From Mobula hypostoma (Eukaryota): a DNA stretch of 64,000 nucleotides. The position numbers were made by a program, and so were the translations under genes. The stretch is from the NCBI RefSeq assembly GCF_963921235.1, contig NC_086097.1, positions 16,864,001 through 16,928,000 of the forward strand, read 5' to 3'. Each line of letters starts with the position of its first letter. Positions within the stretch are counted from its first letter, which is position 1. Shown here piece by piece: positions 11,899-55,137 of this stretch. The notes beneath the pieces were generated by a model, which had not been told where the DNA came from, did no database searches, and saw nothing but the letters and a program-made list of their open reading frames with translations.

Positions 11899-12374
11899 AG
11901 CACAAGAGATTCTTCAGATGCTGAAAATCTAGAGTTGCTCTTACACAAAATGCTTGAACTCAGCAAGTCAGGCATCTATGGAATGGAATAAAGATGTTTC
12001 AGCCCGACACCCTTCATCAGGACTGGAAAGGAAGGGGGGAAGAAGCCAGAATAAGAAAGTGAGGAGGAGGGCAAGGAGTACAAGCTAGAAAATGATAGGT
12101 GAAGTGAGATAGGGCTTCTTCTGCAGGCCTTTACCTTTCCTACCTATCTCCTCCCAGCTTCCCACTTCATCCCCTTCTCACACCCTCTCATCTGGTTTCA
12201 TCTATCACCTGCCAAATTGTACTCCTTCCCTTCCCCCCATCTTCTTATTTTGTTTTCTTCCCCCTACCTTTCTAGTCCTGATGAAGGGTCTTGGCCTGAA
12301 GTATTGACTCTTTCCATACCTTTCCATAGTTGCTACCTGACTTGCTGAGTCCCTCCAGCATTTTATGTGTTACT
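11899..12374. mobile_element. Old inverted (tail-out) Penelope pLTR-derived element
   Basis: Two inverted arms, each with a decayed CTGATGAAGGG...GAA hammerhead motif (about 11993-12026 minus, 12273-12308 plus). Confidence 0.75.
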
Positions 12375-12882
12375 TTAATTTTTGACTTTACTTTAAAGTT
12401 TTCCTTTGGAGACATTAGCAATTAGTGAAAAAGAATGACTTCAATAAAATATATATTTTTTGTGTTTAGAGTTCATTCCATTGTGCAGATCTGCCATTAC
12501 ACAGGGACTTTTGACAGCCATGGGTTTCAAGGACTTTAATACTGCCTCAGTGCATTGTTAATAATGAAATTGTTATGACCTGTTAGAAAATCTAGATGAT
12601 TGTTTGCAGATTAGTGGTTTAGTAATGATGGAGGACAAATAATTAAAATGTTCCATTACTAACCATTCACATCTTTTTGTTTCACAATAGGAGACTGATA
12701 GACCACAGACCATAAGACATAGGAGCAGAATTAGGCTATTCAGTAGTACAACTGGGCTGGGCAACTAAATGGTAAACTAAAACCCCTCTTTTTGTTGTCT
12801 CACCAGTTGCTGTTCGGCAGCCCAAAGAAACACTGCAATCTGCTTTCCTTTTTATATAAATCTGAGACCATGGTGTTTCCAT

Positions 12883-13165
12883 TAGGGAGGCACAATTAGC
12901 ACAATCGCTTTACAGCACCAGCGATCACCGATCGGGGCTCAATTCCCACCACTGCCTGTAAGGAGTTTGTCAATTCTCCTGTGACTGCATGGATTTCCTC
13001 CAGGTGCTCCCGTTTCCTCCCACATCCCAAAAAGGCATATGGTTAGTGAGTTGTGAGCATGCTATGTTGGCACCAGAAGCGTGGTGACACTCGTGGGCTG
13101 CACCCAGCAGATCCTCACTGATCTGATTTGATGCAAGACAACGCGTTGCACTGTACGTTTCGATG
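12883..13165 (+). mobile_element. tRNA-derived V-type SINE
   Basis: tRNA-like head followed by 'aaggagtttgtcaattctcctgtgactgcatggatttcctccaggtgctcc'; similar copies at 34322, 55480 and 62990. Confidence 0.65.
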
Positions 13166-13389
13166 AACTTCAGAATCCGAATCACTTTATTGCTAGTATG
13201 TGAATGTACCAGAACTGATGCCAAACATAAAACACAGGACAATACCATAACTGACAACACAATAGCAACCAACAATTTACAAGACAAAAGTGCAAACAGC
13301 CTTGAGCAATCAACAACCTAGCAGAAAGGTGAAATGCACAAATGTCAATGATCAAACTTAGATCAATGTGAACATATGAAGAGACTCGA

Positions 13390-13675
13390 TTTATTTATTT
13401 ATTTACTGAGCTCCAGCATGGAACAGGACCTTCTGGGTCTTTGATCCGTGCTGCCCAGCCGTCTCCCAATTTAACCCTAGCCTAATCACAGGACAATTTA
13501 CAATGACCAATTAACCTACCAACCAGTATGTTTTTGGACTGTAGGAGGAAACCAGAGCTCCTGGAGGAAACACATGTGCTCACAGGGAGTACATACAAAC
13601 TCCTTATAGGCAGTAGCGGGAATTGAACCTGGGTTGCCTGTACTGTAAAGCTTTGTGCTAATCACTACACTACCA
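13390..13675 (-). mobile_element. V/HE1-type SINE
   Basis: Similar to the copy at 340-621. Confidence 0.65.
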
Positions 13676-14754: not shown

Positions 14755-16800
14755 TAAAACCAGAAGAGCATAAGATATGGGAGCAGAAGTAGGCCATTCT
14801 GTTCTGCCATTCAATCATGGGCTGCTCCAATTCTTCCAGTCGTCCCCACTCCCCTTCCTTCACCCCATACCCTTTAATGCCCTGGATAATCAAGAACCTA
14901 TCTATCTCTGCCTTAAGTACATCCAATGACTTGGCCTCCACAGCCACTCGTGGCAACAAATTCCACAGATATACCACCCTCTGACTAAAGTAATTTCTCT
15001 GCATCTCTGTTCTAAATGAACATCCTTCAATCCTGAAGTCATGCCCTCTTGTCCTAGACTCCCCTACCATGGGAAATAACTTTGCCATATCTAAAGCTAT
15101 TCAGGCCTTTTAACATTCGGAATGTTTCTATGAGATTCTCCCCGTCATTCTCCTGAACTCCAGGGAATACAGCCCAAGAGCTGCCAGACGTTCCTCTTAT
15201 GGTAACCCTTTCGTTCCTGGAATCATTCTCGTGAATCTTCTCTGAAACCACTCCAATGTCAGTGTATCCTTTCTAAAATAAAGAGCCCCAAACTGCACAC
15301 AATACTCCAAATGTGGTCTCACGAGTGCCTTATTGAGCCTTAACATCACATCCCTGATCTTATATTCTATACCTCTAGAAATGACTGCCAACATTGTATT
15401 CCCCTTCTTCACCACCGACTCAGCCTGGAGGTTAACCTTTAGGGTATCCTGCACAAGGACTCCCAAGTCCCTTTGCACCTCTGCATTTTGAATTCTCTCC
15501 CCATCTAAATAATAGTCTGCCCATTTATTTCTACCACCAAAGTGCATGACCATATACGTTCTGACATTATATTTCATTTGCCACTTCTTTGCCCATTCCC
15601 TTAAACTATCTAAGTCACTCTGCAGGCTCTCTGTTTCTTCAACACTACCCACTCCTTCACCTATCTTTGTATCATCGGCAAATTTAGCCACAAATCCCTT
15701 AATCCCATAGTCCAAATCATTGGCATACATCGTAAAAAGCAGCGGTCCCAACACCGACCCCTGTGGAACTCCAGTGGTAACTGGTAGCCAGCCAGAATAG
15801 AATCCCTTTATTCCCACTCTCTGTTTTCTACCGATCAGCCAATGCTCCACCCACGCTAGTAACTTCCCTGTAATTCTATGGGCTCTTATCTTGCTAAGCA
15901 GCCTCATGTGCAGCACCTTGTCAAAGGCCTTCTGAAAATGCAAGTACACCACATCTACTGCATCTCCTTTGCCTATCCTGCTTGTAATTTCCACAATGTA
16001 TTGCAGTAGGTTAGTCAGGCAGGATTTTCCTTTCAGGAAACCATGCTGGCTTTGGCCTATCTTGTCATGTGCCTCCAGGTATTCCGTAATCTCATCCCTA
16101 ACAATCGATTCCAACAATTTCCCAAGCACTGATGTCAGGCTAACAGGTCTATAGTTTCCTTTCTGCTGCCTCCCACCCTTCTTAAATAGCGGAGTAACAT
16201 TTTCAACTTTCCAGTCATCTGGTACAATGCCAGAATCTATCAATTCTTAAAAGATCATTGTTAATGCCTCCACAATCTTTCCAGTTACTTCCTTCAGAAC
16301 CCAAGGATGCATTTCATCAGGTCCAGGAGATTTATCCGTCCTCAGATCATCAAGCTCCCTGAGCACCTTCTCAGTAGGAATTTTCACTGCATAAACTTCA
16401 CTTCCCTGACACTCTTGAATGTCCAGTATACTGCAGATGTCTTCTACTATGAAGACTGATGCAAAATACATTCAGTTCCTCTGCCATCTCTGTGTCTCTC
16501 ATTACAATACCTCCAGTGTCATTTTCTATTGGTCCTATATCTACCCTTGACTCTCTTTTACGCCTTATATATTTAAAAAAGCTTTAGTATCTTCTTTGAT
16601 ATTAGTCACCAGCTTCCTTTCATAATTCATCTTTTCCTTCCTAATGACCTTCTTAGTTTCCTTCTGCAAGATTTTAAAAGCTTCCCAATCCTCTTATCTT
16701 CCCACTAACTTTGGCTTCCTTGTATGCCCTCTCTTTTGCTTTTACTTTGGGACTGACTTCAGTTGTCAGCCATGGTAATGTCCTTCTTCCATCTGAAATC
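14755..16800 (-). mobile_element. Decayed CR1 LINE (RT region)
   Basis: ORF 15197..16243 has QHGF, FQKAFDKV, GVPQGSVLGP and KFADD; adjacent frames carry KSPGPD and the C-terminal motifs, with stops and frameshifts. Confidence 0.92.
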
Positions 16801-18947
16801 ATCTTCTTGAACCAGTGTAGATATTTTCACAGAATTGATGAAGGAAACCCTGTGGAGCTGTTGGCTGGAGAGTTTTAGGATTTAGATGCAGTGACAATAA
16901 AAGGGCCAGCGGCACATTTCCAGGTCAAGGTGATGTGTGACTTGGGGTGAAACCTGGAAGTGGCAGTGCTCCCTTCCACCTGCTGACCTTGTCCTTCTTG
17001 GTAATAGAGACTGAGGGAATAGGGATGTTCTCAGAGGAACAATATTCATGTGGTTATTCTGGTTGAGTTTCTGGCCAATGATGCCTGTGAATGTCAAGGG
17101 CTGGTTACGTAAGAACATAAGAAATAGGAGCAGGAGTAGGCCATCTGGCCTGTCGAGCCTGCTTCGCCATTCATAAGATCATGGCTGAGCTGGCTATGGA
17201 CTCATCTCCACCTACCTACTTTGAACTGTCTTGTTGGAGATGGTCATTGCCTGCCATATTTGAGGCACAAATTTTACCTGTCTTTTATCAACCCATGTCT
17301 CATTGTTTTCCGCTTCCTGCTGTACTCAGGAATATGCTGTTTCATTTGCTGAGGAGATGGAAATGAAAATGGACATTGTGCAATGATCTGCGAACAGCTC
17401 CACTATCCTTATGCTGAAAGGAAGGTTGTTAATGAAGTCGGTCCTAGGTCCTGAGGCAGTCCTGAAGTGATATTCTGAGGCTGAGACAATGACCACAATC
17501 ATCTTCTTTTCTTGCAAGTCAGTACTTCATCTAGAGTGCTTCTCCTCTGATGCACATTGAAGCTACTCTTAATTAAATATTGAATTCTGTGAAATTGAGT
17601 CATTCTCACCTAGCCTCTGGAAGTCAGGTCTTAGGTTAATGTTTGGTGAAAGGGCTGTGAAGAGGCTTGGTATGTATCAGATCATGTAAGACGGCAGATT
17701 GCTCCCTCAAAACCAGATGGGTTATTAGTGGTAGTTTTTTGGTGGCATTTTTTCCGAGACTAGTAGGCATTTTTTTCAAATCCCTAATTATTACTTGAAT
17801 TTAAATTCTGCACTGTCATTGTAGGATTTGAATGTTGTTCTCCAGTTTAATTGTTACATTACCATAGCCTGACAAGGTAAGTGTTACGGAAATTATAGAA
17901 TATTCGTGATAGAAGATCTTCTTTCTGTTCTGATTTTAACCTTCTGTTGGTACAATTGTGGAGTTAACAGGAGGCTGAGACTTTGAGACTGAGATGTGTA
18001 GACAGATTGTAGGCACAGCATATGTTAAAGGACTTGAACAGTTAAATAATCAGTTACCAATATTGGCATTGGATGAGGTTTGATGTGACATTATGCTGGC
18101 AATATCCTATGAATGACTGAGAATCTCATACTGGGCTCCTATGGTATTAAAGTCCTTTCTGGAGCCTGAGGAAATGTGTTCTCATGAACTGGAGATTTGA
18201 GCAAGCTTAATTTGGGTCAGATCTTTAGTTCCAAGGATTGGCATTCCCAAACTCTGTTGACAGCTCTTTGTTCTGCCCTGACAGCTAATGATATTTAAGT
18301 AAGGTTACTCCTATTAGTGAAGCAAATTACTATTCCCTCTCTGTATCTTTTACTCCTCTAATAGAAATGCAGTTGACATTGATAATTTAATTAAACCTCA
18401 AACTGGTCTCTAGTTCTTTTTATCTATGCCAACATTTGAAGCTGGGCATGGATCAAAAATAATTACCTCATTTCATGTAAACATGAATCTAAAAATTATG
18501 AAGCTAATTTGGAATGTCAAAGCTAATTTCAACCTATATCCTCCTTAATAGCCTTGCCTTTCTCTAACTCAAAAGAGTATTATAGAAATATCATTAAAAT
18601 GTGGATAGAAATGCAGGCAGCTTGAGCTAATGTAGTGCACAGGAGAGGGTATTTTTTTAACTCTGAGATCAGACTTCCACAGTGGTCTGAGGGTTGTGGC
18701 TTAGGATATGGGGTATAATGAGAGGATAGAGTGGTAGTAAGGGTGCATTAGGTACAGTCGATTGAACTCAGTCTTTTCCAGAACTGCTTAGTCCTGATGT
18801 TGAGTGACCTAGACGATAAGTGTACCATTCTGCAATGAGGCACTAATCTTGGTGCTTGATCACATCCGTTCTTCAAACAGCAAAGCTGATACCTCAGAAT
18901 CACAAGCGAATCAGGTTTAACATCATCATCCTATAGGATGTGAAATA

Positions 18948-19141
18948 TGCAAACACCAGGAAATCTGCAGATGCTGGAAATTCAAGCAACACACATAAAA
19001 AATGCTGGTGAATGCAGCAGGCCAGGCAGCATCTATAGGAAGAGGTACAGTCGACGTTTCAGGCCGAGACCCTTCGTCAGGACCCTTTGACCTGACGAAG
19101 GGTCTCGGCCCGAAACATCGACTGTACCTCTTCCTATAGAT
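18948..19141. mobile_element. Hairpin-shaped PLE mini-element (left part); its right end is at 22895-22921
   Basis: Inverted pLTR arms; 16-bp TSD TATAGGATGTGAAATA at 18932-18947 and 22922-22937 encloses it together with the nested long PLE. Confidence 0.85.
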
Positions 19142-19201
19142 AACACACATCAAAGTTGCTGGTGAACGCAGCAGGCCAGGCAGCATCTATAGGAAGAGGC
19201 G

Positions 19202-19239
19202 CAGTCGACGTTTCAGGCCGAGACCCTTCGTCAGGACTA
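19202..19239 (-). ncRNA. Minimal type I hammerhead ribozyme in the 3' pLTR
   Basis: UAGUC CUGACGA A GGGUCUCGGCCU GAAAC GUC/GACUG: stem I UAGUC:GACUG, CUGANGA and GAAA core, palindromic ACGU stem III; predicted cut between 19207 and 19206. Confidence 0.85.
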
Positions 19240-19530
19240 ACTGAAGGAAGAGTGAGTAAGGGATTTGAAAGCTGGAGGGGGAGGGGGAGATGTAAAATGA
19301 TAGGAGAAGACAGGAGGGGGAGGGATGGAGCCGAGAGCTGGAAAGGTGATAGGCAAAAGGGGATACGAGAGGATCATGGGACAGGAGGTCCGGGAAGAAA
19401 GACGGGGGGGGGTGACCCAGAGGATGGGCAAGAGGTATATTCAGAGGGACAGAGGGAGAAAAAGGAGAGTGAGAGAAAGAATGTGTGCATAAAAAAGAGT
19501 AACAGATGGGGTACGAGGGGGAGGTGGGGC

Positions 19531-22500
19531 CTAGCGGAAGTTAGAGAAGTCAATGTTCATGCCATCAGGTTGGAGGCTACCCATACGGAATATAAGGTGT
19601 TGTTCCTCCAACCTGAGTGTGGCTTCATCTTTACAGTAGAGGAGGCCGTGGATAGACATGTCAGAATGGGAATGGGATGTGGAATTAAAATGTGTGGCCA
19701 CTGGGAGATCCTGCTTTCTCTGGCGGACAGAGCGTAGATGTTCAGCAAAGCGGTCTCCCAGTCTGCGTCGGGTCTCACCAATATATAAAAGGCCACATCG
19801 GGAGCACCGGACGCAGTATATCACCCCAGTCGACTCACAGGTGAAGTGATGCCTCACCTGGAAGGACTGTTTGGGGCCCTGAATGGTGGTAAGGGAGGAA
19901 GTGTAAGGGCATGTGTAGCACTTGTTCCGCTTACACGGATAAGTGCCAGGAGGGAGATCAGTGGGGAGGGATGGGGGGGACGAATGGACAAGGGAGTTGT
20001 GTAGGGAGCGATCCCTGCGGAATGCAGAGAGAGGGGGGGAGGGAAAGATATGCTTAGTGGTGGGATCCCGTTGGAGGTGGCGGAAGTTACAGAGAATAAT
20101 ATGTTGGACCCGGAGGCTGGTGGGGTGGTAGGTGAGGACCAGGGGAACCCTATTCCTAGTGGGGTGGTGGGAGGATGGAGTGAGAGCAGATGTACGTGAA
20201 ATGGGGGAGATGCATTTAAGAGCAGAGTTGATAGTGGAGGAAGGGAAGCCCCTTTCTTTAAAAAATGAAGACATCTCCCTCGTCCTAGAATGAAAAGCCT
20301 CATCCTGAGAGCAGATGCGGCGGAGACGGAGGAATTGCGAGAAGGGGATGGCGTTTTTGCAAGAGACAGGGTGAGAAGAGGAATAGTCCAGATAGCTGTG
20401 AGAGTCAGTAGGCTTATAGTAGACATCAGTGGATAAGCTGTCTCCAGAGACAGAGACAGAAAGATCTAGAAAGGGGAGGGAGGTGTCGGAAATGGACCAG
20501 GTAAACGAGGGCAGGGTGAAAGTTGGAGGCAAAGTTAATAAAGTCAACGAGTTCTGCATGCGTGCAGGAAGCAGCGCCAATGCAGTCGTCGATGTAGCGA
20601 AGGAAAAGTGGGGACAGATACCAGAATAGGCACGGAACATAGATTGTTCCACAAACCCAACAAAAAGGCAGGCATAGCTAGGACCCATACGGGTGCCCAT
20701 AGCTACACCTTTAGTTTGGAGGAAATGGGAGGAGCAAAAGGAGAAATTGTTAAGAGTAAGGACTAATTCTGCTAGACGGAGCAGAGTGGTGGTAGAGGGG
20801 AACTGATTAGGTCTGGAATCCAAAAAGAAGCGTAGAGCTTTGAGACCTTCCTGATGGGGGATGGAAGTATATAGGGACTGGACATCCATGGTGAAAATAA
20901 AGCGGTGGGGGCCAGGGAACTTAAAATCATCGAAAAGTTTAAGAGCGTGAGAAGTGTCACGAACATAGGTCGGAAGGGATTGAACAAGGGGTGATAAAAC
21001 AGTGTCGAGGTATGCAGAAACGAGTTCTGTGGGGCAGGAGCAAGCTGAGACAATAGGTCGGCCAGGACAGGCAGGTTTGTGGATCTTGGGTAGGAGGTAG
21101 AAACGGGAAGTGCGGGGTGTGGGAACTATAAGGTTGGTAGCAGTGGATGGGAGATCCCCTGAGCGGATAAAGTCGTTGATAGTGTGGGAGACAATGGCCT
21201 GGTGCTCCTTAGTTGGGTCACAATCGAGGGGTAAATAAGAGGAGGTATCCACGAGTTGTTGCTGTGCCTCAGCAAGGTAGAGGTCAGCACGCCAGACTAC
21301 AACAGCACCCCCCTTATCAGCGGGTTTAATAATAATGTTAGGATTAGTGCGGAGGGAGTGGAGAGCAGAGCGTTCCGAAGGAGTGAGGTTAGAATGGGGA
21401 CAAGGTGCGGTGAAGTCGAGACGGTTGATGTCCCGTCGGCAGTTGGCAATAAAGAGATCCAGAGCAGGCAGAAGACCAGAGCGGGGTGTCCATGAAGAAG
21501 AGGAGTGTTGAAGACGGGAGAAGGGGTCATCGGTGGGGGTGGAAGAGTCCTTGCCGAAGAAGTAGGCTCGGAGACGGAGACGGTGGAAGAAAAGTTCTGC
21601 ATCGTGGCGAACACAGAACTCGCTGAGGTGTGGGCGAAGGGGGACAAACGTGAGGCCCTTACTGAGAACAGAGCGCTCTGCCTCTGACAGTTGAAGGTCG
21701 GAGGGGATGGTAAAGACCCGGCACGGATGAGAGCTGGGATCAGAGGGGGGGGGAGGGGGGAGGCTGGGGGTGTCAGTGGAGAGGGGAGGGTTGGGGTGAG
21801 AGGAAGATGGAGCCTCTGAGGGCCCAGGAGTTGACGGTGGGATCTGAGGAAGACGGGGCTGCGGAGTGGTGGTGGGGGAAGGGGAGACGGGAGTCACAAC
21901 AGCAGCACATAAAGACCCGGCCTGGAGTTCAAGGCTGGAGTCGCAGTTGGTGGTTGCGCGATCGCTTTGAATGTCTCCATGGTCGTTGCTGGAGTCCGGG
22001 TTTTGAATATGTCCTGAGGTGTTGGAGCCGGCGAGATCAATGGCAGAGGCCGCAATCTGAAGTTCATGCCTACTAGTTTCATGGTCAGCAGGCTCTGGAG
22101 TCCGTAGATGTAAGATCTTGCGATCTTTGCCTAACATGACAAAGTCAAAGAAACGGCGATTGCAGGCGTGGATCCGACGGAGGATGAAATACCGGGTAGG
22201 ACCATTACAGACGGCGAAGAAAGTGTCCCGAAGGAGTGGAAGGGTCTGGGATAGGGACACCAAGTACCTCCTCATGGCGGAGAGCGTCGCCTTCAGAGCT
22301 TGACGGGAGAAGCGGCGAGAGGCAGAGTCAATGAAATGTGAGTACCTGGGATCCTCAGAAGGTCCAAATTGAGAGGCTTGGAAACGAATCCCAAAGCCAA
22401 CTGGAGTAAGTTGGCGACGGAGGCACGTTCCTAGAAAGGATACATGGCTGTGATAGCGAGTTTGAGTCAAAGTCTGGTCGAAAAGTTGAAGAGCCGAAGA

Positions 22501-22581
22501 AATCACAGATGGGGAGCAGTGAGAGATGGTTTCACTGAACTCCCGTCGAAGAGAGGATCTAAACTTCTTCGGTGTAGGCAT
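19531..22581 (-). CDS. PLE polyprotein: N-terminal region, RT, Cys-rich linker, GIY-YIG endonuclease (1016 aa from the ATG at 22581); RT catalytic motif out of frame
   Basis: KPADKGGAVVV, FYLLPKIHK..PGRPIVS, MDVQSLYTSIP, GVAMGTRMGPSYA, PFLDL, YKPTDSHSYL, CKRNKCYTC, VIYCVRCSRCGLLYIGETRR..EH; YIDD codons at 20585-20596 lie in another frame. Confidence 0.9.
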   Translation of the reverse strand: MPTPKKFRSSLRREFSETISHCSPSVISSALQLFDQTLTQTRYHSHVSFLGTCLRRQLTPVGFGIRFQASQFGPSEDPRYSHFIDSASRRFSRQALKATLSAMRRYLVSLSQTLPLLRDTFFAVCNGPTRYFILRRIHACNRRFFDFVMLGKDRKILHLRTPEPADHETSRHELQIAASAIDLAGSNTSGHIQNPDSSNDHGDIQSDRATTNCDSSLELQAGSLCAAVVTPVSPSPTTTPQPRLPQIPPSTPGPSEAPSSSHPNPPLSTDTPSLPPPPPSDPSSHPCRVFTIPSDLQLSEAERSVLSKGLTFVPLRPHLSEFCVRHDAELFFHRLRLRAYFFGKDSSTPTDDPFSRLQHSSSSWTPRSGLLPALDLFIANCRRDINRLDFTAPCPHSNLTPSERSALHSLRTNPNIIIKPADKGGAVVVWRADLYLAEAQQQLVDTSSYLPLDCDPTKEHQAIVSHTINDFIRSGDLPSTATNLIVPTPRTSRFYLLPKIHKPACPGRPIVSACSCPTELVSAYLDTVLSPLVQSLPTYVRDTSHALKLFDDFKFPGPHRFIFTMDVQSLYTSIPHQEGLKALRFFLDSRPNQFPSTTTLLRLAELVLTLNNFSFCSSHFLQTKGVAMGTRMGPSYACLFVGFVEQSMFRAYSGICPHFSFATSTTALALLPARMQNSLTLLTLPPTFTLPSFTWSISDTSLPFLDLSVSVSGDSLSTDVYYKPTDSHSYLDYSSSHPVSCKNAIPFSQFLRLRRICSQDEAFHSRTREMSSFFKERGFPSSTINSALKCISPISRTSALTPSSHHPTRNRVPLVLTYHPTSLRVQHIILCNFRHLQRDPTTKHIFPSPPLSAFRRDRSLHNSLVHSSPPSLPTDLPPGTYPCKRNKCYTCPYTSSLTTIQGPKQSFQVRHHFTCESTGVIYCVRCSRCGLLYIGETRRRLGDRFAEHLRSVRQRKQDLPVATHFNSTSHSHSDMSIHGLLYCKDEATLRLEEQHLIFRMGSLQPDGMNIDFSNFR

Positions 22582-22714
22582 CACCGGAAGAGGCTTCGCA
22601 GTAGTGAATTTAAACGCAAACAACAGGAATTCTGCAGATGCTGGAAATTCTAGCAACACACATCAAAGTTGCTGGTGAACGCAGCAGGCCAGGCAGCATC
22701 TATAGGAAGAGGCG

Positions 22715-22752
22715 CAGTCGACGTTTCAGGCCGAGACCCTTCGTCAGGACTA
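22715..22752 (-). ncRNA. Minimal type I hammerhead ribozyme in the 5' pLTR
   Basis: Identical to 19202-19239; predicted cut between 22720 and 22719. Confidence 0.85.
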
Positions 22753-22939
22753 ACTGAAGGAAGAGTGAGTAAGGGATTTGAAAGCTGGAGGGGGAGGGGG
22801 AGATGCAAAATGATAGGAGAAGACAGGAGGGGGAGGGATAGAGCCGAGAGCTGGACAGGTGATAGGCAAAAGGGATACGAGAGGATCATGGGACAGGCCT
22901 GCTGCGTTCACCAGCATCTTTTATAGGATGTGAAATAGG

Positions 22940-26700: not shown

Positions 26701-27799
26701 TGCCAAATCCATTGTTGTTATTTAATCCCACCCCTGAGATTGTGGTCTTACCCCAGGGCTTTTGATGTATGTTCATTTTATTTTTTGCAATATTGCTTAG
26801 CAGGGAATAAACATTGAGTTAATTCAGGATAGTAAGTCAAAAGTATAGAAATAACAGTTACTAGGGAGGGGAGTGGTTTAAACTAAACAGCTGAACAAGC
26901 CGTGGGCAGGAGGAGATTTTTGTGATATGCGGCGTATTTTAATGGTCTTAAACTCTGGAGGAAGCAGATTTAGTACTTGCTTTCAAAAGGAAGTCAAGTA
27001 AAGGACTTGCTGAATTTCTTTGGTACATTTCAGAGGGCTTTATTTAAAATTTTTGTTAGTGTTCAGAAAACTTGCGTAATTTTTATTATTAAAAAGTCTT
27101 AAGGATGCATCAACTTTAGGTCTCAATAAGTCCAACTAAGTTAAAATCACAAAGTCACAGGCCAATGTGATGTGTCTGTGCTCTGAATCTGTAAATGATA
27201 CAGTGAAGTATTCCACGATTTGAAATGTTGTTATCCTGATACCTTACCCTTATCAGAATATGGAGACACAATTGTGCCACTTGTTAGACACAGCAATGAA
27301 ATCTAGACTTAACTCTGCATTTGTTAAGGACAAGTGGAGTGAGCCTACTTTTCAATTTGGTAGGAAATAATTTCACTTTGAAAGTAATTCCATTGCCTCT
27401 GACTGGAGGCATGTGTCACAGGGATCGGTGCTAGGTCCATTGTTGTTTATTATCTGTATTAATCATTTAGATGATAATGTCATAAACTACTTTGACAAAT
27501 TTGTGATGACATCAAGATAGGAGGTGTAGTGGACAGTGAGGAAGACTATCAAAGTTTGCAGCAGGATCTGGCCCTACTGGAAAAATGGGCTGAAAAATGG
27601 CAGATGGAATTTACTGCAGACAAGTGTGAGGTGTAGAACTTTGTGAGGACAAGCCAGGGTAAACCTTACACAGTGAATGTTAACAACAGGAATTCTGCAG
27701 ATGCTGGAGATTCAAGCAACACACATCAAAGTTGCTGGTGAACGCAGCAGGCCAGGCAGCATCTATAGGAAGAGGCGCAGTCGTGCAGCATCTATAGGA

Positions 27800-29238
27800 A
27801 TGTTCGTGACACTTCTCACGCTCTTAAACTTTTCGATGATTTTAAGTTCCCTGGCCCCCACCGCTTTATTTTCACCATGGATGTCTAGTCCCTATATACT
27901 TCCATCCCCCATCAGGAAGGTCTCAAAGCTCTACGCTTCTTTTTGGATTCCTGACCTAATCAGTTCCCCTCTACCACCACTCTGCTCCGTCCAGCAGAAT
28001 TAGTCCTTACTCTTAATAATTTCTCCTTTTGCTCCTCCCATTTCCTCCAAACTAAAGGTGTAGCTATGGGCACCCGTATGGGTCCTAGCTATGCCTGCCT
28101 TTTTGTTGGGTTTGTGGAACAATCTATGTTCCGTGCCTATTCTGGTATCTGTCCCCCACTTTTCCTTCGCTACATCGACGACTGCATTGGCGCTGCTTCC
28201 TGCACGCATGCAGAACTCGTTGACTTTATTAACTTTGCCTCCAACTTTCACCCTGCCCTCAAGTTTACCTAGTCCATTTCCGACACCTCCCTCCCCTTTC
28301 TAGATCTTTCTGTCTCTGTCTCTGGAGACAGCTTATCCACTGATGTCTACTATAAGCCTACTGACTCTCACAGCTATCTGGACTATTCCTCTTCTCACCC
28401 TGTCTCTTGCAAAAACGCCATCCCCTTCTCGCAATTCCTCCGTCTCCGCCGCATCTGCTCTCAGGATGAGGCTTTTCATTCTAGGACGAGGGAGATGTCT
28501 TCATTTTTTAAAGAAAGGGGCTTCCCTTCCTCCACTATCAACTCTGCTCTTAAATGCATCTCCCCCATTTCACGTACATCTGCTCTCACTCCATCCTCCC
28601 ACCACCCCACTAGGAATAGGGTTCCCCTGGTCCTCACCTACCACCCCACCAGCCTCCGGGTCCAACATATTATTCTCCGTAACTTCTACCACCTCCAACG
28701 GGATCCCACCACTAAGCACATCTTTCCCTCCCCCCCTCTCTCTGCATTCCGCAGGGATCGCTCCCTACACAACTCCCTTGTCCATTCGTCCCCCCCATCC
28801 CTCCCCACTGATCTCCCTCCTGGCACTTATCCGTGTAAGCGGAACAAGTGCTACACATGCCCTTACACTTCCTCCCTTACCACCATTCAGGGCCCCAAAC
28901 AGTCCTTCCAGGTGAGGCATCACTTCACCTGTGAGTCGACTGGGGTGATATACTGCGTCCGGTGCTCCCGATGTGGCCTTTTATATATTGGTGAGACCCG
29001 ACGCAGACTGGGAGACCGCTTTGCTGAACATCTACGCTCTGTCCGCCAGAGAAAGCAGGATCTCCCAGTGGCCACACATTTTAATTCCACATCCCATTCC
29101 CATTCTGACATGTCTATCCACGGCCTCCTCTACTGTAAAGATGAAGCCACACTCAGGTTGGAGGAACAACACCTTATATTCCGTATGGGTAGCCTCCAAC
29201 CTGATGGCATGAACATTGACTTCTCTAACTTCCGCTAG
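27800..29238 (+). pseudogene. PLE RT/GIY-YIG coding remnant with in-frame stops
   Basis: In-frame RYIDD (YIDD codons 28171-28182); stops at 27886-27888, 27952-27954 and 28270-28272; intact GIY-YIG in ORF 28495..29238. Confidence 0.9.
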
Positions 29239-40835: not shown

Positions 40836-43322
40836 GTTCTCTGCTGAACAAACCAACTGAGCCTGTTGTACACGTAGCGAAAATACCAGCGGAACGAATG
40901 CACCCATTAAGTATCCAAGGAATGATTTACACAGCTGCCCCTGCACCTGGGAGGCAGAACGGTGGAGGAGGGGAGTGATGGCCATCACATGGTGAGGATC
41001 AGGCTACAGGGTTACATTGTGCATTGGTTTACATTGTAAATTTCAGGGCAAGGGTTATATTGTGAAATGCCAGAGAGATCAGAACCTCTAGAGCACAAAC
41101 CACTTGCTTGGATAATGCACCACTGGAGAGGTGTTTTGCAAATAAATAAAGAGCAAGAAGATTAGTAAGGAATCAAGTCAAACCTAGCAGAGACAAAAAG
41201 GTATCCTCTGGGCTGAGGCAGAACGTTAGGCATCCTTTGAAATGAATGCTTTCTCTAAGTCTTCACTGAACTGGAGGATGATGCAGTTATTGTAATTATG
41301 TGCGAAATGCTTGATGGTTAAACAGAGTGAGAGAGAAACTATTAAATGATCTTTGATAGTTGGTGCCATGTCAGAGGACTCAATGTTGGCAAAAATTATA
41401 TTGTTGTTAAACAAGGGACAGAAGTTTAGTCTGAGGAAGTAGTCCCAGTGGGGGACCTTTACGATGAAAATATCTGGGAGATAGTAGAAACTGTCATTTA
41501 GAAAGATGGATCAATCAAAAAATTTAAAAATGATTCAAAAATGGTTCAATTTAATATCAGAGAATGCATACAGTATACAACCTGAAATTTGTCCTCTTCG
41601 CAGACATCCACAAAACAAGAAACCCCAAAGAGTGGATGATAGAAACATCAGAACCCCAAAGCCGCCCCACTCACAAGCACCAGAAGAAGCACCAACACCC
41701 ACCCCACACCATGCAAGCAATAGTAAATGCCTTTAAAGAGACCTTGATCGAGAGTTCTTCAAAAACTACAGTCCATAACCCAGCATTTCAGTATCTCAGA
41801 CAGGCTCTCTCACTCCATCGATGGACAGCGAGGTCACTCCTGCAAAAACGAGGGCAGGGACCAGCAACTCACTGTTCTGATGTTACAATATTCCACGCTG
41901 CTTCTCCAAGCCCCCGAATTGAGGACCGACAGGCACTCACTCCTCATCAAAAGAGAGAGAGAGAGATCATTTGAGTAGAGGGACCTTCCTCTGACAGCAG
42001 CACCCACTGCTTGTGAAGGACTGTAGTTTGAACTATAGATCGCGGATTCTGACAGAACCCCAACCACCTTGAAAAGAAAAGAAAGACATAAGGGAAGATT
42101 TTTAAGGACGTAAGAACAGAAGAAATAGGAACAGGAGTAGGTCATCTGGCCTGTTGAATCTGCTCCGCCATTCAATAAGATCATGGTTGATCTGACCATG
42201 GACTCATCTCCACCTACCTGCCTTTCCCCATAACCCTTAATTCCCCTACTATGCAAATATCTATCCAACCTTGTCTTAAATATACTTACTGAGGTAGCCT
42301 CCACTGCTTCATTGGACAGTGAATTCTACAGAATCACCACTCTCTGGGAAAAGCAGTTCCTCCTCATCTTCATCCTAAATTTACTCCCCTGAACCTTGAT
42401 GCTATGTCCCCTAGTTCTAGTCTCACCTACCAGTGGAAACAGCCTTCCTGTCACTATCTTGTCTATCCCTTTCATAATTTTATATGTTTCTATAAGATCT
42501 CCTCTCATTTTTCTGAATTCCAGTGAGTACAGTCCCAAGCAACTCAATCTGTCCTCATAGTCTAACCTCCTCATCTCTCCAGAGATGGTGAACCTGGTGA
42601 ACCTCCACTGAACCGCCTCCAAAGCCAGTGTGTCCTTCCACAAGTAAGGAGACCAGAACTGCACGCAGTACTCCAGGTGTGGCCTCACCAGAAGCCTGTA
42701 CAGTTGCAGCATAACCTCCCTGCTCTTAAATTCAATCCCTCTAGCAATGAAGGCTAACATTCCATTTGCCTTCTTGATAACCTGCTGCACCTGTAAACCA
42801 ACCTTTTGTGATTCATGCACAAGACTCCCAAGTCCCTCTGCACAGCAGCATGCTGCAAATTTTTTCCACTTAAATGATAATCTACTCTTTCATTTTTCCT
42901 TCCAAAGTGGATGGCCTCGCATTTACCAACATTGTACTCCATATGCCAGACCCTTGCCCACTCACTTAACCTATCTATATCTCTCTGCAGACTCTCCGTA
43001 TCTTCTGCCCAATTTGCTTTTCCAGTCAATTTACTATCATCAGCAAACTTAGATACACTACACTCGGTCCTCTCTTCCAGATCGTTAATGTGTATCATGA
43101 ACAGTTGGGGGCCCAGCACTGACCCCTGCGACACACCACTCACCACTGAATGCCAGCCAGAGTAACACCCATGTATCCCAACTCTCCGTTTCCTATTAGT
43201 TAACTGATCCTCTATCCATGCTAATACATCACCCCCAACTCTATGCATCCTTATCGTATGGTTAAATCTTTTATGCGGCACCTTATCAAACGTCTTCTGG
43301 AAATCAAAGTAAATAACATCCA

Positions 43323-43417
43323 AACAACAGGAATTCTGCAGATGCTGGAAATTCAAGCAACATACATCAAAGTTGCTGGTGAACGCAGCAGGCCAGGCAG
43401 CATCTATAGGAAGAGGT
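43323..43417 (-). mobile_element. 95-bp PLE insert corresponding to the sequence downstream of the hammerhead cut
   Basis: 7-bp TSD ACATCCA at 43316-43322 and 43418-43424. Confidence 0.85.
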
Positions 43418-43950
43418 ACATCCATCTGTTTCCCTCTATCCACTCTGCTTACTAAATTCTCAAAGAACTCCAGTAAATTTGTCAAACAGGACCTGCCTTT
43501 GCTGAATCCATGCTGCATCTACCTGACTTTTCAGATGCCTCGCCATTTCTTCTTTAATGATAGCTTCAAGCATTTTCCCATCTACAGATGTAAAACTAAC
43601 TGGCTTATGGTTACCTGCCTTTTGTCCACATCCTTTTTTTGAACAGTGGTGTAACATTTGCTGTTTTCCAGTCCGCTGGGACCTGCCCAGAGCCCAGGGA
43701 ATTTTGGTAAATCATTACCAAAGCCTCCACTATAACTTCTGTCATTTCTTTCAGTACTCTGTGATGCATCCCATCAGGACCAGGGGACTTGTCTATCTTC
43801 AGGCCCATAACTTTGTTCAGCACTACATCTTTAGTGATAGTTGTTGTATCGAGGTCCTCACCTCCCATTGCATTCATAGCATCTCTCTTTGGTATGTTAG
43901 ACATGTCCTCCACTGTGAAGACTGACACAAAATAGTCATTCAAAGCCTTT

Positions 43951-44042
43951 CACATCAAAGTTGCTGGTGAACGCAGCAGGCCAGGCAGCATCTCTAGGAA
44001 GAGGTACAGTCGACATTTCGGGCCGAGACCCTTTGTCAGGAC
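43951..44042 (-). mobile_element. 92-bp PLE insert starting at the 5' edge of a mutated hammerhead
   Basis: 7-bp TSD AGCCTTT at 43944-43950 and 44043-44049. Confidence 0.8.
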
Positions 44043-44084: not shown

Positions 44085-44835
44085 CAAGTCAAGTCAAGTC
44101 AAGTCAAGTCAAGTCAAGTCAAGTCACTTTTTATTGTCATTTAGACCATAACTGCTGGTACAGTACACAGTAAAAACAAGACAATGTTTTTCAGGACCAT
44201 GGTGCTACATGAAACAATACAAAAACCACACTAGACTACAGACACGACGAATTCTGCAGATGCTGGAAATTCAAGCAACACACGCAAAAAATGCTGGTGG
44301 AACGCAGCAGGCCAGGCAGCATCTATAGGAAGAGGTGAGTCCTTCGTGAGTCCTGACGAAGGGTCCTGGCCCGAAACGTCGACTGTACCTCTTCGTATAG
44401 AAGCTGCCTGGCCTGCTGCGTTCCACCAGCATTTTTTGTGTGTGTTACTAGACTACAGATCTACCCAGGACTGCATAAAGTGCACAAAACAGTGCAGGCA
44501 TTACAATAAATAATAAACAAGACAATAGGCACAGTAGAGGGCAGTAGGTTGGTGTCAGTCCAGGCTCTGGGTATTGAGGAGTCTGATGGCTTGGGGGAAG
44601 AAACTGTTACATAGTCTGGTCCTGAGAGCCTGAATGCTTCAGTGCCTTTTGTCAGATGGCAGGAGGGAGAAGAGTTTGTATAAAGGGTGTGTGGGGTCCT
44701 TCATAATGCTGTTTGCTTTACGGATGCAGTGTGTGGTGTAAATGTCTGTAACGGTGGGAAGAGAGACCCCGATGATCTTCTCAGCTGACCTCACTATCCG
44801 CTGCAGGGTTTTGTGATCCGAGATGGTGCAATTCT
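44085..44835 (-). mobile_element. Rex/Babar-like 3' fragment with a (GACTT)n tail, seen as (AAGTC)n at 44085-44126
   Basis: 'LQRIVRSAEKIIGVSLP...IMKDPTHP...LLPS' peptide. Confidence 0.8.
44243..44446. mobile_element. Hairpin PLE mini-element with a hammerhead at 44349-44385 (plus)
   Basis: 13-bp TSD ACTAGACTACAGA at 44230-44242 and 44447-44459; inverted arms. Confidence 0.9.
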
Positions 44836-47800
44836 CAACCTCCAAGGGACCTATGTTCACTGTAGCCACACTTCAGCCACCCTCTTCTGCTTTTTTAAGG
44901 GAAGATTGTGTCAGAACAGACTTGTTACATGGCATCTCTTCGTTCCCTATTTGAAAAGGAGGGGCTGATAAGGAGAGCTTTTGTAATCTAAAGGGCTTTT
45001 GGCAAAATAACCCATGACAAACTCGCCAGAGAAGTGAAACTCTACGGGAGGCAAGTTGGGTCCGAAATTGGCTCAGAGACAGGAGACATGGAGTAATCAC
45101 CCTGCAGAGGGTCCTGGCTCAAAATGTTGACTGTTTATTCCTTTCCATAGATGCTGCCTGATCTGCTGAGTTCCACCAGCATTTTGTACAGTATGCATTG
45201 CTCTGGATTTACAGCATCTGCAGAATATCTTGTAATGGTCAGCAGATGTTTTGTGACTAGAAAGTTATTTATATGGGATGCCTCAAGTCTCAGTACGAAG
45301 TATCTTGTGTTTTTGTCATTATATTAATATCTTATGCTTAAGTACAGTGGGTACTGGAATCAGAATCAGCTTTAATATCACTGGCATATGTCATGAAATT
45401 TGTTAATTTTGCAGCAGCAGTACAATGCAGTACATAATAGTTAAACTATAAATTGCAGTATGACATGTATCTATATAAAAAAAAGTTAAGCTAAATAAGA
45501 AGTACAAAAAAGAGAAAAATGGTTAGTGAGGTAGTGTTCATGGGTTCACTGTCCATTCAGAAATCTGATGGCAGAGGGGAAGAAGCTCTTCCTGAATTGC
45601 TGAGTGTGTGCCTTCAGGCTCCTGGGTGATGGGGGTTCTTATTGATGGACGCCATCTTTTTGAGGCATTGCTCCTTGAAGATGTCCTGGATGCTGGGGGT
45701 GCTGGTGCCCATGATGGAGCTGACTGAGTTCTCAACTTTCTGCAGCTTATTTAAGCAGTTTATTGATAAAAATGGCCATATCTTGGAAGAAAGATGTCGA
45801 GTTTGATAAGTTCCTGAGAACCTTATTTATAGGGAAAGATTGAATAAGTTTATTCCCAGGAGTGTAGGAGATAGGGAGGAGGGGGGTTGCTAGTGGTAAA
45901 CAAAATTATGAGGGGTATAGATAGGGTATTTTCCACTGCTTGGGTGAGACTAGAACTAGAGGTCATAGGTTAAGGGTGAAAACTGAAATATTTAATGGCA
46001 ATATGAGGGTGTTGTGGGTTGCCAGCAGAAGTGATGGATGCAGGTTTGCTTTCAACATTGAAGAGAAGTTTGGAGAAGTACATGGAATGGAGGGGTATGG
46101 TCCAGCAGCAGGTCAGTGGGATGAGGCAAAATCTTAGCTTGGCATGGACTAGATGGGCCAAAGGGCCTTTCTCTGTTCTATGACTCCATGACTCTGGGTA
46201 TCAATGAACTGTTAAGAGGGCAATAATATGGAGGTGTATGAGGTAAAGCATTTAAGGAGGACAAACAAAGTAAAGGAATACAAGATAAATAAGAAAATTT
46301 GGCTATGTGAATAGCAGAGGGAAATTGAAGTGCTTGGTCACTAATAACTGAAGAAAGCAGGACGTAAAGATTAAATAATAAAGAAGACCTATGATACCAG
46401 AGAAACAGGAGTGATATTAAGCCAGGATGGGCCTATGTGGTTTACCTGTAAAGAAAGCAACCAATGCAATTAGTAGAAATAAGTTAAATCAGCAATGTCC
46501 GCTATATAACCGCATCAGTAAGAGATTTAAGTTACTTTCATTCCTGCAGGGAAGTGTGGTTACACTAGAACTGTATGAAACACTTGACAGGCCACAGCTG
46601 GAGCACTGTGTACTGTTCTGGTTACCAGATTACAAGGAGGATTTGATTGCACTCTAGTGCATGCAGGAGTACTGGGATGTTGTCAGAAGTGGAGAATTTT
46701 GGGCTTTGAGGAGGGGCTGCGGTTGATTATTTTGGAACAGAGGAGACTATGGGGAAATTTAAAAGAGGTGAATAAAACTATGAATGGTTTTAGACTGGAC
46801 TCCAAGGCCACCCGAGGCAAATACACTGATCATTTTAAAGCTTGTATGTTCTGTTAAGGTCCCAACTTACATAATTTAGAGTCAAGATTTAGAAAATGAG
46901 ATGAGGGCAGGTAACACTCTTTTGGGAGGCAGGGAACAAAACTACCCCCTTCTGTACCGAGAATTTTTAATTTCTCCTGTACTATTTGTCTCTACCTATC
47001 CTGCCTTCTGTCCCATCACAGTCTTCCTTTTGATCTTTCAAACCCTCACTCATTTCCTACCTCTATATGTGTATCATCATCATCATTAGGCGCTGTGTCG
47101 TATGAACGTGGACGATCATGGTCTTTCCATGCCCATGATTGTTCCTGGCAAATTTTTCTACAGAAGTGGTTTGCCATCACCTTTTTCTGGGCAGTGTCTT
47201 TACAAGACGGGTGACCACAGCCATTATCAATACTCTTCAGAGACTGTCTGCCTGGCGTCAGCCAGGACTTATGATATGCACCAGCTGTTCATATGACTAT
47301 CCACTACCTGCTCCCATGGCTTTATGTGATCCTGGTTGGGTGGGGGGGGGGAGTGGCTAAGCAAGTGCTACAGATTGCCTAGGGGTGACCTGCAAATGGC
47401 AGAGGGAAGGAAAACCTTACACCTCCTTTGGTAGAGACGTATCTCCACCCCGCCACCCAGCATGTTATATATGTATGAAATCTATATGTCTCTTAGGTGT
47501 TTGCCTGTTCTAATGAAAGGTTATTTCTAGCGTGGAAATGGATAAAACCAGAGGGCCTAGAGGTAAATTTTAATTATAGATAGGTATAGGTATAGATAGG
47601 GTAAATACAGGCAAGCTTTTTACACTAAGGTTGAGCGAGACTACAACTAGAGGTCACGAGTTAAGGGTGAAGAGTGAAATGTTTAAGGGGAGCCTGAGAA
47701 AGAGCTTCTTCACTCAGTGTGGTGAGAGTGATGAATGATGTGGTGAATGCAGGTCCGATTCCAGCGTTGAAGAGGAGTTTGTATAAGTACACGGATTGGA

Positions 47801-51950: not shown

Positions 51951-51956
51951 TTTTAC

Positions 51957-52570
51957 TACATTGGAATCCAGTTAATTGGGACACATTGGGACCAGTACTT
52001 TCTGGCCCAATTAAGTGGCTGCTCCAATTAGTTGAATTTTCATGGAAATAATTAAAATGGTACAAAAATGCAATCTACGATTTGAGTAACAAATAATGTA
52101 CTTAAAATGAAATGCACAATAAATTAGAACACTATCAATAATACTACTGTACTATAAAACTGTGTATTAGTTCCTAATAGTTATTGATGGAAGAATTCAT
52201 TCAGTGTAAGCTGATGTATTCTTGTGATAGACTGCAAATGAACAAAGTCAGCATAGACACCTAGTGCAGATAGTAGACTGCTTTCAAACAGAGATGTTGA
52301 TGCTTGCAGCCTCCGAGCCTTTATTTTAATCGTAACATTCAAGATGATTGTTGATACCTTGAAATCCTTTGTAGTTCCTAACTTGTTGAAGTAGCAAAAT
52401 CATTTCACTTTCACTCCTGGCCGTTTTTTGCATCTCCAAGTCTGAATGCTTGAAACCACAGTGAACAAAACGGTTCTGAATTGTCTTACTGTATATTACT
52501 CGCCAACTACCAGTGACAAAGATCACTGCTTTTTGAACACAAATATGCAAGTGACACTATTTATAAACTG
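51957..52570 (-). mobile_element. Tigger/pogo-like DNA transposon relic
   Basis: 'VIFVTGSWRVIYSKTIQNRFVHCGF' resembles the Tigger C-terminal 'AW..V...TI.NCF.KAGF' motif; TIR-like end 'tacattggaatccagttaattgggacac'. Confidence 0.5.
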
Positions 52571-52644
52571 TTCGCCATTTTCTGTCCTGTAATTTCTTTC
52601 TGTGTCATGTGGTGGATTGGGCAGCAACCTTGGTGTTTCTTTCA

Positions 52645-53174
52645 ATACACACAAAATGCTGGTGGAACGCAGCAGGCCAGGCAGCATCTATTGGAAGAGG
52701 TACAGTCGACGTTTCGGGCCGAGACCCTTCGTCAGGACTAACTGAAAGAAGAGATAGTAAGAGATTTGAAAGGGGGAGGGGGAGGGGGAGGTCCAAAATG
52801 ATAGGAGAAGACCGGAGGTGGAGGGATGGAGCTAGGAGCTGGAAAGTTGATGGGCAAAAGGGATACAAGGTTGGAGAGGGAGAGGATCATGGGACGGGAG
52901 GCCTAGGGAGAAAGAAAGGGGGAGGGGAGCCCAGAGGAAGATGGAGAGCAGGCAAAGAGTTTTAGTGAGAAGGACAGAGGGAGAAAAGAGAGAGAGAGAA
53001 AGAGAAAAAAGGGAACAAACAAACAAATAAATAAATAAATAAGGGATGGGGTAAGAAGGGGAGTAGGGGCATTAATGGAAGTTAGAGAAGTCAATGTTCA
53101 TGCCATCAGGTTGGAGGCTACCCAGACAGAATATAAGATGTTGTTCCTCCAACCTGAGTGTGGCTTCATCTTGA
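52645..53174 (-). mobile_element. 5'-truncated PLE 3' end with an intact hammerhead at 52703-52740
   Basis: Encodes the GIY-YIG C-terminal tail and the 3' UTR; imperfect TSD tgtttcttt(c)aata. Confidence 0.85.
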
Positions 53175-54099
53175 CCTGTTTCTTTAATATTTTTGTCTTT
53201 TTTTTAACGAGGCTGAGTGCTAGCTTGATGCTCAAACCAGCATGGTGGAAGGAGCTGGCCATATTCAACATGGGACTACTTGCCTCGAAGTCCAGTGCCA
53301 ATGCCACTATACCACCAACTGGCTATTTTCTGTCTAATTGGGAAAAAATCTGGAATAAAAATCTAGAATCTAAATAAATCAGGAAGCTAGTATCACTAAT
53401 GCTGTCTATAAAGCTACCAGACTGTGGAATAAAAACCCTGTGATTTCTTCGGAAGGCCATCTGCCATCCGTAGCCACGACATAGATCTCCTGAGAGAGCA
53501 TTGGTTTCTTTGTTTAGTTTCAGACCCAAAGCAATGTGGTTGACTGTCCTCTGAAATGGTCTGACAAACTACTCAATTCAGAGACAATAGTGGGGTGTAG
53601 TAAATGCTGTCCATGCCAAGGACGTCCACATCCACAGACATATAAACAGAATAAATTAAAGGAAACAAGAAAACGTGCTAGAAAAATGCACCCATTTATG
53701 CCCTTGTGTCCAGGATCAGACATAGAGCATACCCAGAAACGGGGACATCTCCTTTTCCCTTACTAGGGAGAGAGAGAGAGAGAGAGCCTGTGGTATGTTG
53801 AATACCGGGTGAACAACTAGTCTTCGGGGTACTGCAAGTCTGTGTCTTTATTGATGTTTTGCTGCACACTTGCGTGCTCGGTGGGGGGCGCCGATGCTTT
53901 TTTGTTGGGGGAGGTTCGTTGCTTTGTTGCTGCTTATGTGTAGGAGGGGGGAGTTGGGGGGGAGCTTTGGGGTTCTAACATTTAACTGTCATTAATTCCT
54001 TGGGGCACTCCTCTGTTTTCATGGATGAATTTCAGGATGCATATTGTATACATTTTTCTGACATTAAATGTACCTATTGAACCTATTGAATGCTGAGTT

Positions 54100-55137
54100 A
54101 CAAACAAGAGAAAGTCTGCAGATGCTAGAAATTTGAGCAACACACACAAAATGCTGAAGGAACTCACCCTACCAGAGATAAGGTTCCTCCTGTAGTCACC
54201 TACCACCCTACCAGCCTCCATGTCCAGCACATAATTTTCCAAAACTTCCGCCACCTACAACTGGATCCCGCCACCAAACACATTTTTCCCTCCCCTTCAC
54301 TTTCTGCTTTCCGCAGGAATCGCTCCCTACACGGCTCCCTTGTCCATTTGTCCCTCCCCACTGATCTCCCTCCTGGCACTTATCCTTGCAAGCGGAACAA
54401 GTGTTACACCTGCCCCTACACCTCCTTCCTCACTACCAATCAGGGCCCAAACAGTCCTTCCAGGTGAGGTGACACTCACCTGTGAGTCTGTTGGGGTCAT
54501 ATACTGTGTTTGGTTCTCCCGGTGTGGCCTCTTATATCGGTGAGACCCGATGTAGATTAGAAGACCCCTTTGCAGAGCATCTACACTCTGTCCGCCAGAA
54601 CAAGCAAGATCTCCCAGTGGCCACCCATTTTAATTCCACTTCCCATTCCCATTCCTATATGTTCATCTATGGCCTCCTCCACTGTCAGGATAAGGGCACA
54701 CTTAGGTTGGAGGAATAACACCTTGTATTCTGTTTGGGTAGCCGCCAACCTGATGGCATAAACATCGATTTCTCAAACTTCCAGTAATATTTCCACTCCC
54801 CCCCTTCACCATTTCCTATCCCCTTGTCCCTCTCTCATGTTATCTTCTTGCCCGCCCATTGCCTCCCTCTGGTGCTCCTCCCCCCTTTCTTCTTTCTTCC
54901 ATGGCCTTCTGTCTCTTTCACCAAACAGCTTCCTAGCTCTTTGCTTCATCCCTCCCCCTCCAACTTTCACCTATCGCCTGGTGCTTCTCTCTCCCCTCCC
55001 GCACCTTTCAAATCTACTCCTCAGCCTTTTCTCTCCAGTCCTGCCAAAGGGTTTCGGCCCGAAACGTCGACTGTACTTTTTTCCACAGATGCTGCCTGGC
55101 CTGCTGAGTTCCTCCAGCATTTTGTGTGTGTTGCTTA
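54100..55137 (+). mobile_element. Older 5'-truncated PLE with a short inverted 5' arm
   Basis: 12-bp TSD GAATGCTGAGTT at 54088-54099 and 55138-55149; 'TCESVGVIYCVWFSRCGLLY', 'YIGETRCRL...FAEHL'; decayed hammerhead at 55036-55073. Confidence 0.9.

Follow-up and report, generated by a model that had tools for sequence, protein, structure and literature searches.

Copies of a Penelope-Like Element in the Window

The DNA analysed here is a stretch of 64,000 nucleotides from Mobula hypostoma (NCBI RefSeq assembly GCF_963921235.1, contig NC_086097.1, positions 16,864,001 to 16,928,000 of the forward strand). This window (1-64,000) contains CR1-like open reading frames (ORFs) and many pieces of one Penelope-like element (PLE), several of which are arranged as inverted pairs of arms with one long and one short outer end. 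The longest copy lies at 19142-22897 on the minus strand (3.76 kb) and is nearly full-length: it comprises a 5' pseudo-long terminal repeat (pLTR) with a hammerhead motif, an ORF, a 3' untranslated region and a 3' pLTR with a short end, without a target-site duplication (TSD) of its own. The pLTR, of 244 bp, is present as a partial tandem (22897-22655 versus 19385-19142, 98.4% identity).

The ORF of this copy (19531-22581, minus strand) encodes 1016 aa from an ATG at 22581 and carries DKG at aa 422, the reverse transcriptase (RT) motifs A at aa 563 and B at aa 625, a CX4CxxC finger in the linker at aa 883 as well as a GIY-YIG domain at the C terminus, in the form VIY-C-C-YIG, at aa 920, with His residues downstream. 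The YIDD motif is out of frame via a compensated frameshift, while in the copy I3, described below, it is in frame, yet a stop is present. The best protein matches of the ORF (75% and 70% identity) are both from a cartilaginous fish; PF00078 is found in homologues, and PF01541 as well in some of them, while the broken ORF itself matched 0 families when scanned directly against Pfam. A single ORF combining a DKG-type RT and a GIY-YIG endonuclease (EN) with two Cys between GIY and YIG (CCHH) is the hallmark of the endonuclease-bearing (EN+) PLEs. In passages of PMC8557442, a CX2-5CxxC finger in the RT-EN linker is the criterion that separates Neptune/Nematis from Penelope/Poseidon. Because the CX4CxxC finger is present, the element is, by that definition and as judged from its sequence, a Neptune/Nematis-type PLE and not a Poseidon, and the copies in the window are dead, truncated copies of it. 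Searches elsewhere with the RT-EN protein gave 0 related loci in viral contigs and 0 in genome contigs, and a search with the pLTR pattern likewise 0 matches in both sets; two metagenome-contig matches to the pLTR pattern, without a profile hit, were discarded as GC-rich chance matches.

A motif scan of the 5' pLTR located a minimal type I hammerhead at 22716-22751 on the minus strand, with stem I, a CUGACGA core, stem II, GAAA and a palindromic 4-nt helix III region. The predicted cut falls after window position 22720, from which all + and - positions given here are counted, and the ATG lies 139 nt downstream of it. The core pattern has 13 matches, 10 of them linked to the element, whereas an Rfam search gave no hammerhead hit at the gathering score. 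The predicted motif resembles the minimal metazoan PLE hammerheads treated in passages of PMC4209133 in its type I core, almost absent helix III and palindromic segment, and would be expected to act only as a dimer; no difference from them was found.

Two Zones of Element Ends

An arm profile search of the window gave 28 matches, 3 of them weak, from which 20 outer ends were scored. Since gapped local alignment overran the ends into the AT-rich flank by several to about 20 bases, the ends were anchored on the TSD where one existed. Left unscored were the junction at 22720, the inner half-arm 19091-19141, an old 40-nt PLE scrap at 9924-9963, both arms of the decayed pair I8 (about 34810-35020) and the 3 weak matches. 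As many as 11 of the 20 scored 3' ends fall at +55 to +70 and the other nine at +97 to +105, with none at +71 to +96. The short ends lie at +55, +61, +62/65, +63 (without a TSD), +65 (three), +66 (two), +68/70 and +70, the long ends at about +97 (one), +99 to +101 (five) and +104/105 (three).

The two end classes of the original prediction were therefore recovered, with an empty gap between them, and each of the 16 coordinates that it had listed is an element end; four single arms (43951, 52643, 60712 and 45233), the 40-nt scrap at 9924-9963 and the eighth tail-out pair at about 34810-35020 were absent from its list. Its exact positions fared less well. A short end 65 nt past the cut is exact at 19142, 29628 and 44446, the only three of the 11 short ends with an unambiguous +65, the others being spread over +55 to +70; the long end placed about 100 nt past the cut corresponds to nine ends in subgroups, split between about +100 and +104/105, rather than to one position. 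The zones are thus about 15 nt (short) and about 8 nt (long) wide, and the term 'fixed' used for the priming sites does not hold.

In the longest copy, this tail region (22615-22655, minus strand) lies at the unterminated pLTR-to-ORF junction, with the short start zone near 22655 (+65) and the long start zone at 22620-22615 (+100 to +105). Both zones are GU-rich in the template, each ends in UUGC, and they lie 37 nt apart, in agreement with the proposal that the difference of about 35 nt is the optional pLTR tail, for which 30-40 bp have been published. Folding of the RNA gave a z-score of 0.01, and compensatory changes were found among the nine long arms in 0 of 19 predicted pairs; RNA structure as the determinant of the two start sites is not supported by these predictions.

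The end classes were also followed beyond the window by mapping the Logan contigs of two runs, X1 (possibly the source of the DNA in the window) and X6 (from another organism and study), onto 22540-22900. Contig depth, which is a rough measure, falls in the tail to 0.44 (X1) and 0.50 (X6) of its value ahead of the short zone, remains level from +64 to +89 (ratios of 1.01 and 1.02, respectively) and drops beyond the long zone to 0.02 and 0.014. A continuum of termini, which would have spoken against the two classes, would not produce the plateau that both runs have between the two steps. Among the places listed, loose ends occur at +68 in X1 (314 contigs) and X6 (262) and at +108 in X1 (182), positions that are maybe shifted outward, since local alignments overrun into the AT-rich flank. 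The data confirm two end classes at about 1:1 in X1 and X6, and concern ends, not pairs. As for joints between opposite strands, the two with the highest contig counts, 22616/22654 and 22618/22652, are tail-to-tail connections between a long and a short end (15 contigs in X1, 5 in X6), and none of the 15 joints listed, with 53 further ones unlisted, is long-to-long or short-to-short. Such joints could stem from a two-ended intermediate that was resolved in another way, from tandem units, or from insertion into an end already present.

A further preferred place was noticed at the inner (5') side of the arms. Five inner boundaries (19083, 19091, 37921, 44042 and 44347) lie at -28 to -33, which is the 5' edge of hammerhead stem I (window 22748-22754), and both X1 and X6 have 22749-22751 among their top places for loose ends, the 22751 row being partly of an older subfamily. 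This edge is preceded by a pyrimidine tract and AG, a possible splice acceptor; a passage of PMC4209133 places an intron end at the corresponding stem I position in D. virilis.

Long and Short Ends in the Two-Armed Inserts

Seven tail-out inserts (I1-I7, given without strand) had been predicted to combine a long with a short end, and this was observed in all seven, six of them inside one TSD. The exact TSDs of the six are 16, 13, 12, 9, 13 and 12 bp, matching the predicted 9-16 bp. The exception is I1 (11899-12372), an old pair with its long end on the left and its short end on the right, in which no TSD was found and the 5' reach of the short arm exceeds that of the long arm by about 80 nt. 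I2 (18948-22921) is compact, with a long arm at 18948-19083 (-30 to +105), a short arm that consists of the pieces 19091-19141 and 22898-22921 and ends at +55, and a 16-bp TSD (18932-18947 and 22922-22937). In I3 (27683-29628, 13-bp TSD) a 100-nt long arm (+1 to +100) starts exactly at the cut and the short end is carried by a 1.83-kb body, whereas in I4 (29845-30476, 12-bp TSD) the short arm is on the left (-57 to +66) and the long end (+101) belongs to the arm bearing the body. I5 (37789-37962) has a long arm from -30 to +104, a short arm from +24 to +62/65 and an exact TSD of 9 bp, or of 14 bp if one mismatch is allowed; I6 (44243-44446, 13-bp TSD) has a long arm from +8 to about +100, a short arm from -33 to +65 and a small templated hairpin at the junction. 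I7 (54100-55137) combines a long arm from +37 to +104 with a short end at +68/70 on a 1-kb body, its exact TSD being 12 bp long, or 14 bp if one mismatch is allowed. Inner junctions differ among all inserts, and in I3 a duplicate of a short piece of the long arm lies between that arm and the body (27683-27800). Finally, I8 (34810-35020, approximate boundaries) is a very old tail-out pair without a TSD; both of its arms seem to enter the tail, as in a possible long/long pair, and they are no longer alignable to each other and too decayed for a firm call. No short/short pair was found in the window.

The short end of I2 at 22921 had been described as clipped; it lies at +55, 10 nt off, and has 3 letters of microhomology with its TSD. 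The same arm is, in addition, split between +22 and +32 by the younger 3.76-kb copy at 19142-22897, whose diagnostic letters differ from those of the outer I2 arms, so 18948-22921 probably represents two events. Apparently the young copy went into the short arm of an older family member, with a few target bases lost and no TSD formed.

The probability of seven long/short pairs out of seven is 0.007-0.008 for independent ends and 0.037 when the 14 ends are permuted; for the six TSD-backed pairs it is 0.015-0.069. The TSDs themselves are well above background: duplications of at least 7 bp occurred in 0 of 154 mismatched end pairs, and of at least 9 bp in 2 of 1500 random pairs. No shared target motif was seen by eye in the six TSDs. 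True partner arms are more alike than shuffled ones (mean 0.917 versus 0.833, a value reached in 12 of 5040 permutations).

Copies with a single arm use both zones as well. On the minus strand these are 43323-43417 (long end at +101, 7-bp TSD), 43951-44042 (-30 to +61, 7-bp TSD) and 52643-53176 (with the 3' end of the ORF, short end at +66, 9-bp TSD); on the plus strand 60652-60712 (+8 to +70, possible 6-bp TSD) and the old arm 45108-45233, with a long-type end near +97 and no convincing TSD. The TSDs of the two-armed inserts are longer than those of the four one-armed inserts with a candidate TSD (7, 7, 9 and 6 bp; exact Mann-Whitney p = 0.0095, or 0.024 without the 6-bp case), two further single arms without a TSD being uncounted.

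A Proposed Two-Ended Priming Model and Its Alternatives

We consider it probable that the head-to-head pairs arise when a staggered cut in the target leaves two 3'-OH ends that both prime reverse transcription, probably one per internal start site, on an RNA that was likely uncut or re-ligated. That both ends of the cut prime, as originally proposed, gains support, by inference, from the shared TSD, the outer ends in the start zones, the longer TSDs, the likeness of partner arms and the arms of four of the seven inserts: in I1, I3, I6 and I7 the tail is confined to the long arm, yet it is the short arm that runs further toward the 5' end (1.8 kb more in I3, 1 kb more in I7), and therefore neither arm can be a fold-back copy of the other. 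One TSD, arms that each end at a priming site and arms not derivable from each other, as expected of a twin-primed insertion, occur together in I3, I6 and I7, and without the TSD in I1; I2, I4 and I5 are non-discriminating. As to the template, priming near the 5' end of a cleaved RNA, as first suggested, is at odds with the arms, because 10 of the 14 cross the cut site (4/7 long and 6/7 short, the I2 short arm being counted by its 5' piece), which argues for an uncut or re-ligated RNA; I3 is the only insert whose long arm starts right at +1. In I3 and I7 it is the short end that carries the body, in I4 the long end, so neither start site is tied to first-strand synthesis. Two internal priming sites, bounding the tail, are thus supported, although in a weaker form than 'fixed' and with a published precedent in anole Poseidon (PMC11167929).

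In the mechanism that we envisage, the PLE protein would act as a dimer and cut the target with a stagger of about 12-16 nt; both overhangs would be extended, and the two truncated complementary DNAs (cDNAs) would be joined head to head via short microhomology or templated filler. One-armed copies would result when the second end is not primed and part of its overhang is lost. Longer two-armed TSDs are what such a scheme would lead one to expect, since both overhangs would be kept only when both are extended. The least certain step is that the dimer would force one protomer onto each start site. The full version of the model, in which an asymmetric PLE dimer with a 12-16-nt stagger assigns one target end to each RNA start site, and tail, inverted arm and long TSD all follow from one obligatory two-ended priming step distinct from the target-primed reverse transcription of L1 and R2, is a tentative proposal, quite possible rather than probable.

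Alternatively, a single cDNA primed at one target end could fold back on a palindrome and copy itself, the endonuclease resolving the second end at the other tail boundary; passages of PMC3846280 propose self-priming, and those of PMC8557442 EN-mediated resolution. The asymmetry would then follow automatically, the I2 arms meet nearly symmetrically (-30/-28) around a short loop, the I6 junction has a small hairpin, and the short arm is contained, or nearly so, in the long arm in I2, I4 and I5. As the sole route, however, it is refuted by I1, I3, I6 and I7, since a fold-back cannot yield a short arm with up to 1.8 kb extra together with a long arm with an exclusive tail; moreover, PMC11167929, in the part concerned, assigns the tail to RT start sites. 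We regard this route as rather improbable. The asymmetry could also lie in the template: the cleaved transcript of a short-ended master would have the tail only at its 5' end, so that the long arm would be a run-off copy and the short arm would derive from the 3' pLTR. This would suit I3, whose long arm starts at +1, as well as I6 and I7, whose long arms lie within +8 to +104 and whose short arms cross the cut or carry the body, but in I1, I2, I4 and I5 the long arm extends across the cut, the body of I4 is on the long end, and in the experiments reported in passages of PMC11167929 cleavage was unnecessary and no reads ended at the cut. Overall, an origin in the template seems very unlikely. 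Still less credible, to the point of being nearly negligible, is that the two arms went separately into the same site, or that they are inverted master copies which were moved together: nesting into its own pLTR does occur (19142-22897 inside I2), but in six of the seven inserts a single TSD surrounds both arms, partners share their subfamily beyond chance, and the inner junctions are all different.

Closer to two-ended priming with one end per site is the possibility that both target ends prime and each chooses its start site independently, seven out of seven then being luck or a mild bias. The single arms with either zone would agree with this, as would passages of PMC8557442, which place the tail 'often' at one end only, with all variants observed for Penelope, and of PMC3846280, in which the tail is called optional. 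Against it stand the p of about 0.007 for independent ends and the absence of a short/short pair from the window, and we judge it unlikely. Nevertheless, several points count against our preferred reading, some of them in favour of independent choice. There are just seven pairs, a small sample with a permutation p of 0.037, or 0.069 for the six TSD-backed ones, and the old and uncertain I8 may be long/long. The depth ratio near 0.5 is equally expected under random pairing, and individual ends deviate by as much as 10 nt. In the identity table, only one of the seven rows has the true partner as its strict best match. In PMC11167929, start sites did not differ in bulk between the top and the bottom strand, though both ends of individual molecules were not linked there. 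Lastly, with the short arm almost within the span of the long arm in I2, I4 and I5, and hairpin-like junctions in I2 and I6, fold-back is possible in I2, I4 and I5.

Comparison with Known Systems

In the twin priming of L1 ascribed to Ostertag and Kazazian 2001, both target ends are said to prime cDNA, giving an inverted TSD-flanked insertion; the first primer reportedly sits on the poly(A) tail and the second at variable internal homology, and the arms do not overlap. Unlike in L1, the arms described here start in defined zones and overlap in sequence.

Among PLEs, the one-sided tail of 30-40 bp has already been published (Arkhipova 2013; Craig 2021), and so have the two internal RT start sites at its borders (Frangieh 2024). 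According to passages of PMC11167929, the Poseidon protein of the anole Anolis carolinensis (PAc) cuts and extends both target strands in vitro, RT starts at two internal sites with the tail as the interval between them, genomic ends fall on these sites, a dimer is predicted, and uncut or unprocessed RNA is the main substrate. The element studied here likewise has, from genomic sequence, two RT start zones downstream of the hammerhead with the tail between them. By contrast, PAc, as presented in that source, has no linker finger, an ORF that starts inside the hammerhead and AC-rich start sites, instead of an ATG 139 nt past the cut and GU-rich zones each ending in UUGC; the pairing of the two ends of one insertion is not addressed in those passages.

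The inserts also resemble the canonical EN+ PLE unit as outlined in parts of PMC3846280 and in the legend to Fig. 2 of PMC8557442, that is, a partial-tandem pLTR, an inverted head-to-head arm, a TSD around the unit, a tail often at one end and a pLTR hammerhead. In the window we found the partial-tandem pLTR, the inverted 5'-truncated copy, the TSD, the predicted hammerhead motif in the pLTR and a 30-40-bp tail at one end. In Pen2a_Av of Adineta vaga, an example from PMC3846280, the TSD is 9 bp long; the unit shown in that paper is flanked by a TSD and bears a 31-bp tail on one inverted pLTR. The passages of PMC3846280 and PMC8557442 describe the tail as optional, via endonuclease resolution, and the inversion via self-priming, and contain neither a strict long/short rule nor twin priming; formation of the inverted arm is listed as an open question in PMC8557442. 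No such rule, and no twin priming, is stated for PLEs in the literature searched, as judged by titles or abstract openings.

Neighbouring Sequences

The remaining elements of note are pieces at 1568-4210, 15197-16246 and 42326-43518, which from their motifs we take to be CR1-like ORF2; that at 1568-4210 has an open frame of 880 aa, and the PLE arm at 43323 lies inside one such piece. Between the closely spaced PLE insertions at 43323, 43951 and 44243 there is a short tandem repeat with a 5-bp unit (44090-44127).

Significance

The PLE signature found here is real and largely published, in a new family. With the architecture and the two start sites already known, the observation itself is ordinary for PLEs; it carries the two-site pattern beyond Poseidon, to a family of Neptune/Nematis type. 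What it adds is a testable mechanistic link, namely two-ended priming that is probably asymmetric, supported by seven pairs and two small side tests. That the asymmetry may be obligatory is suggested by the seven pairs of the window, with one possible old exception. If true, the strict long/short rule, the non-nested arms and the longer two-armed TSDs would tie the two start sites and the predicted dimer into one mechanism, and the rule is countable in any PLE-rich genome and testable in the existing anole system.

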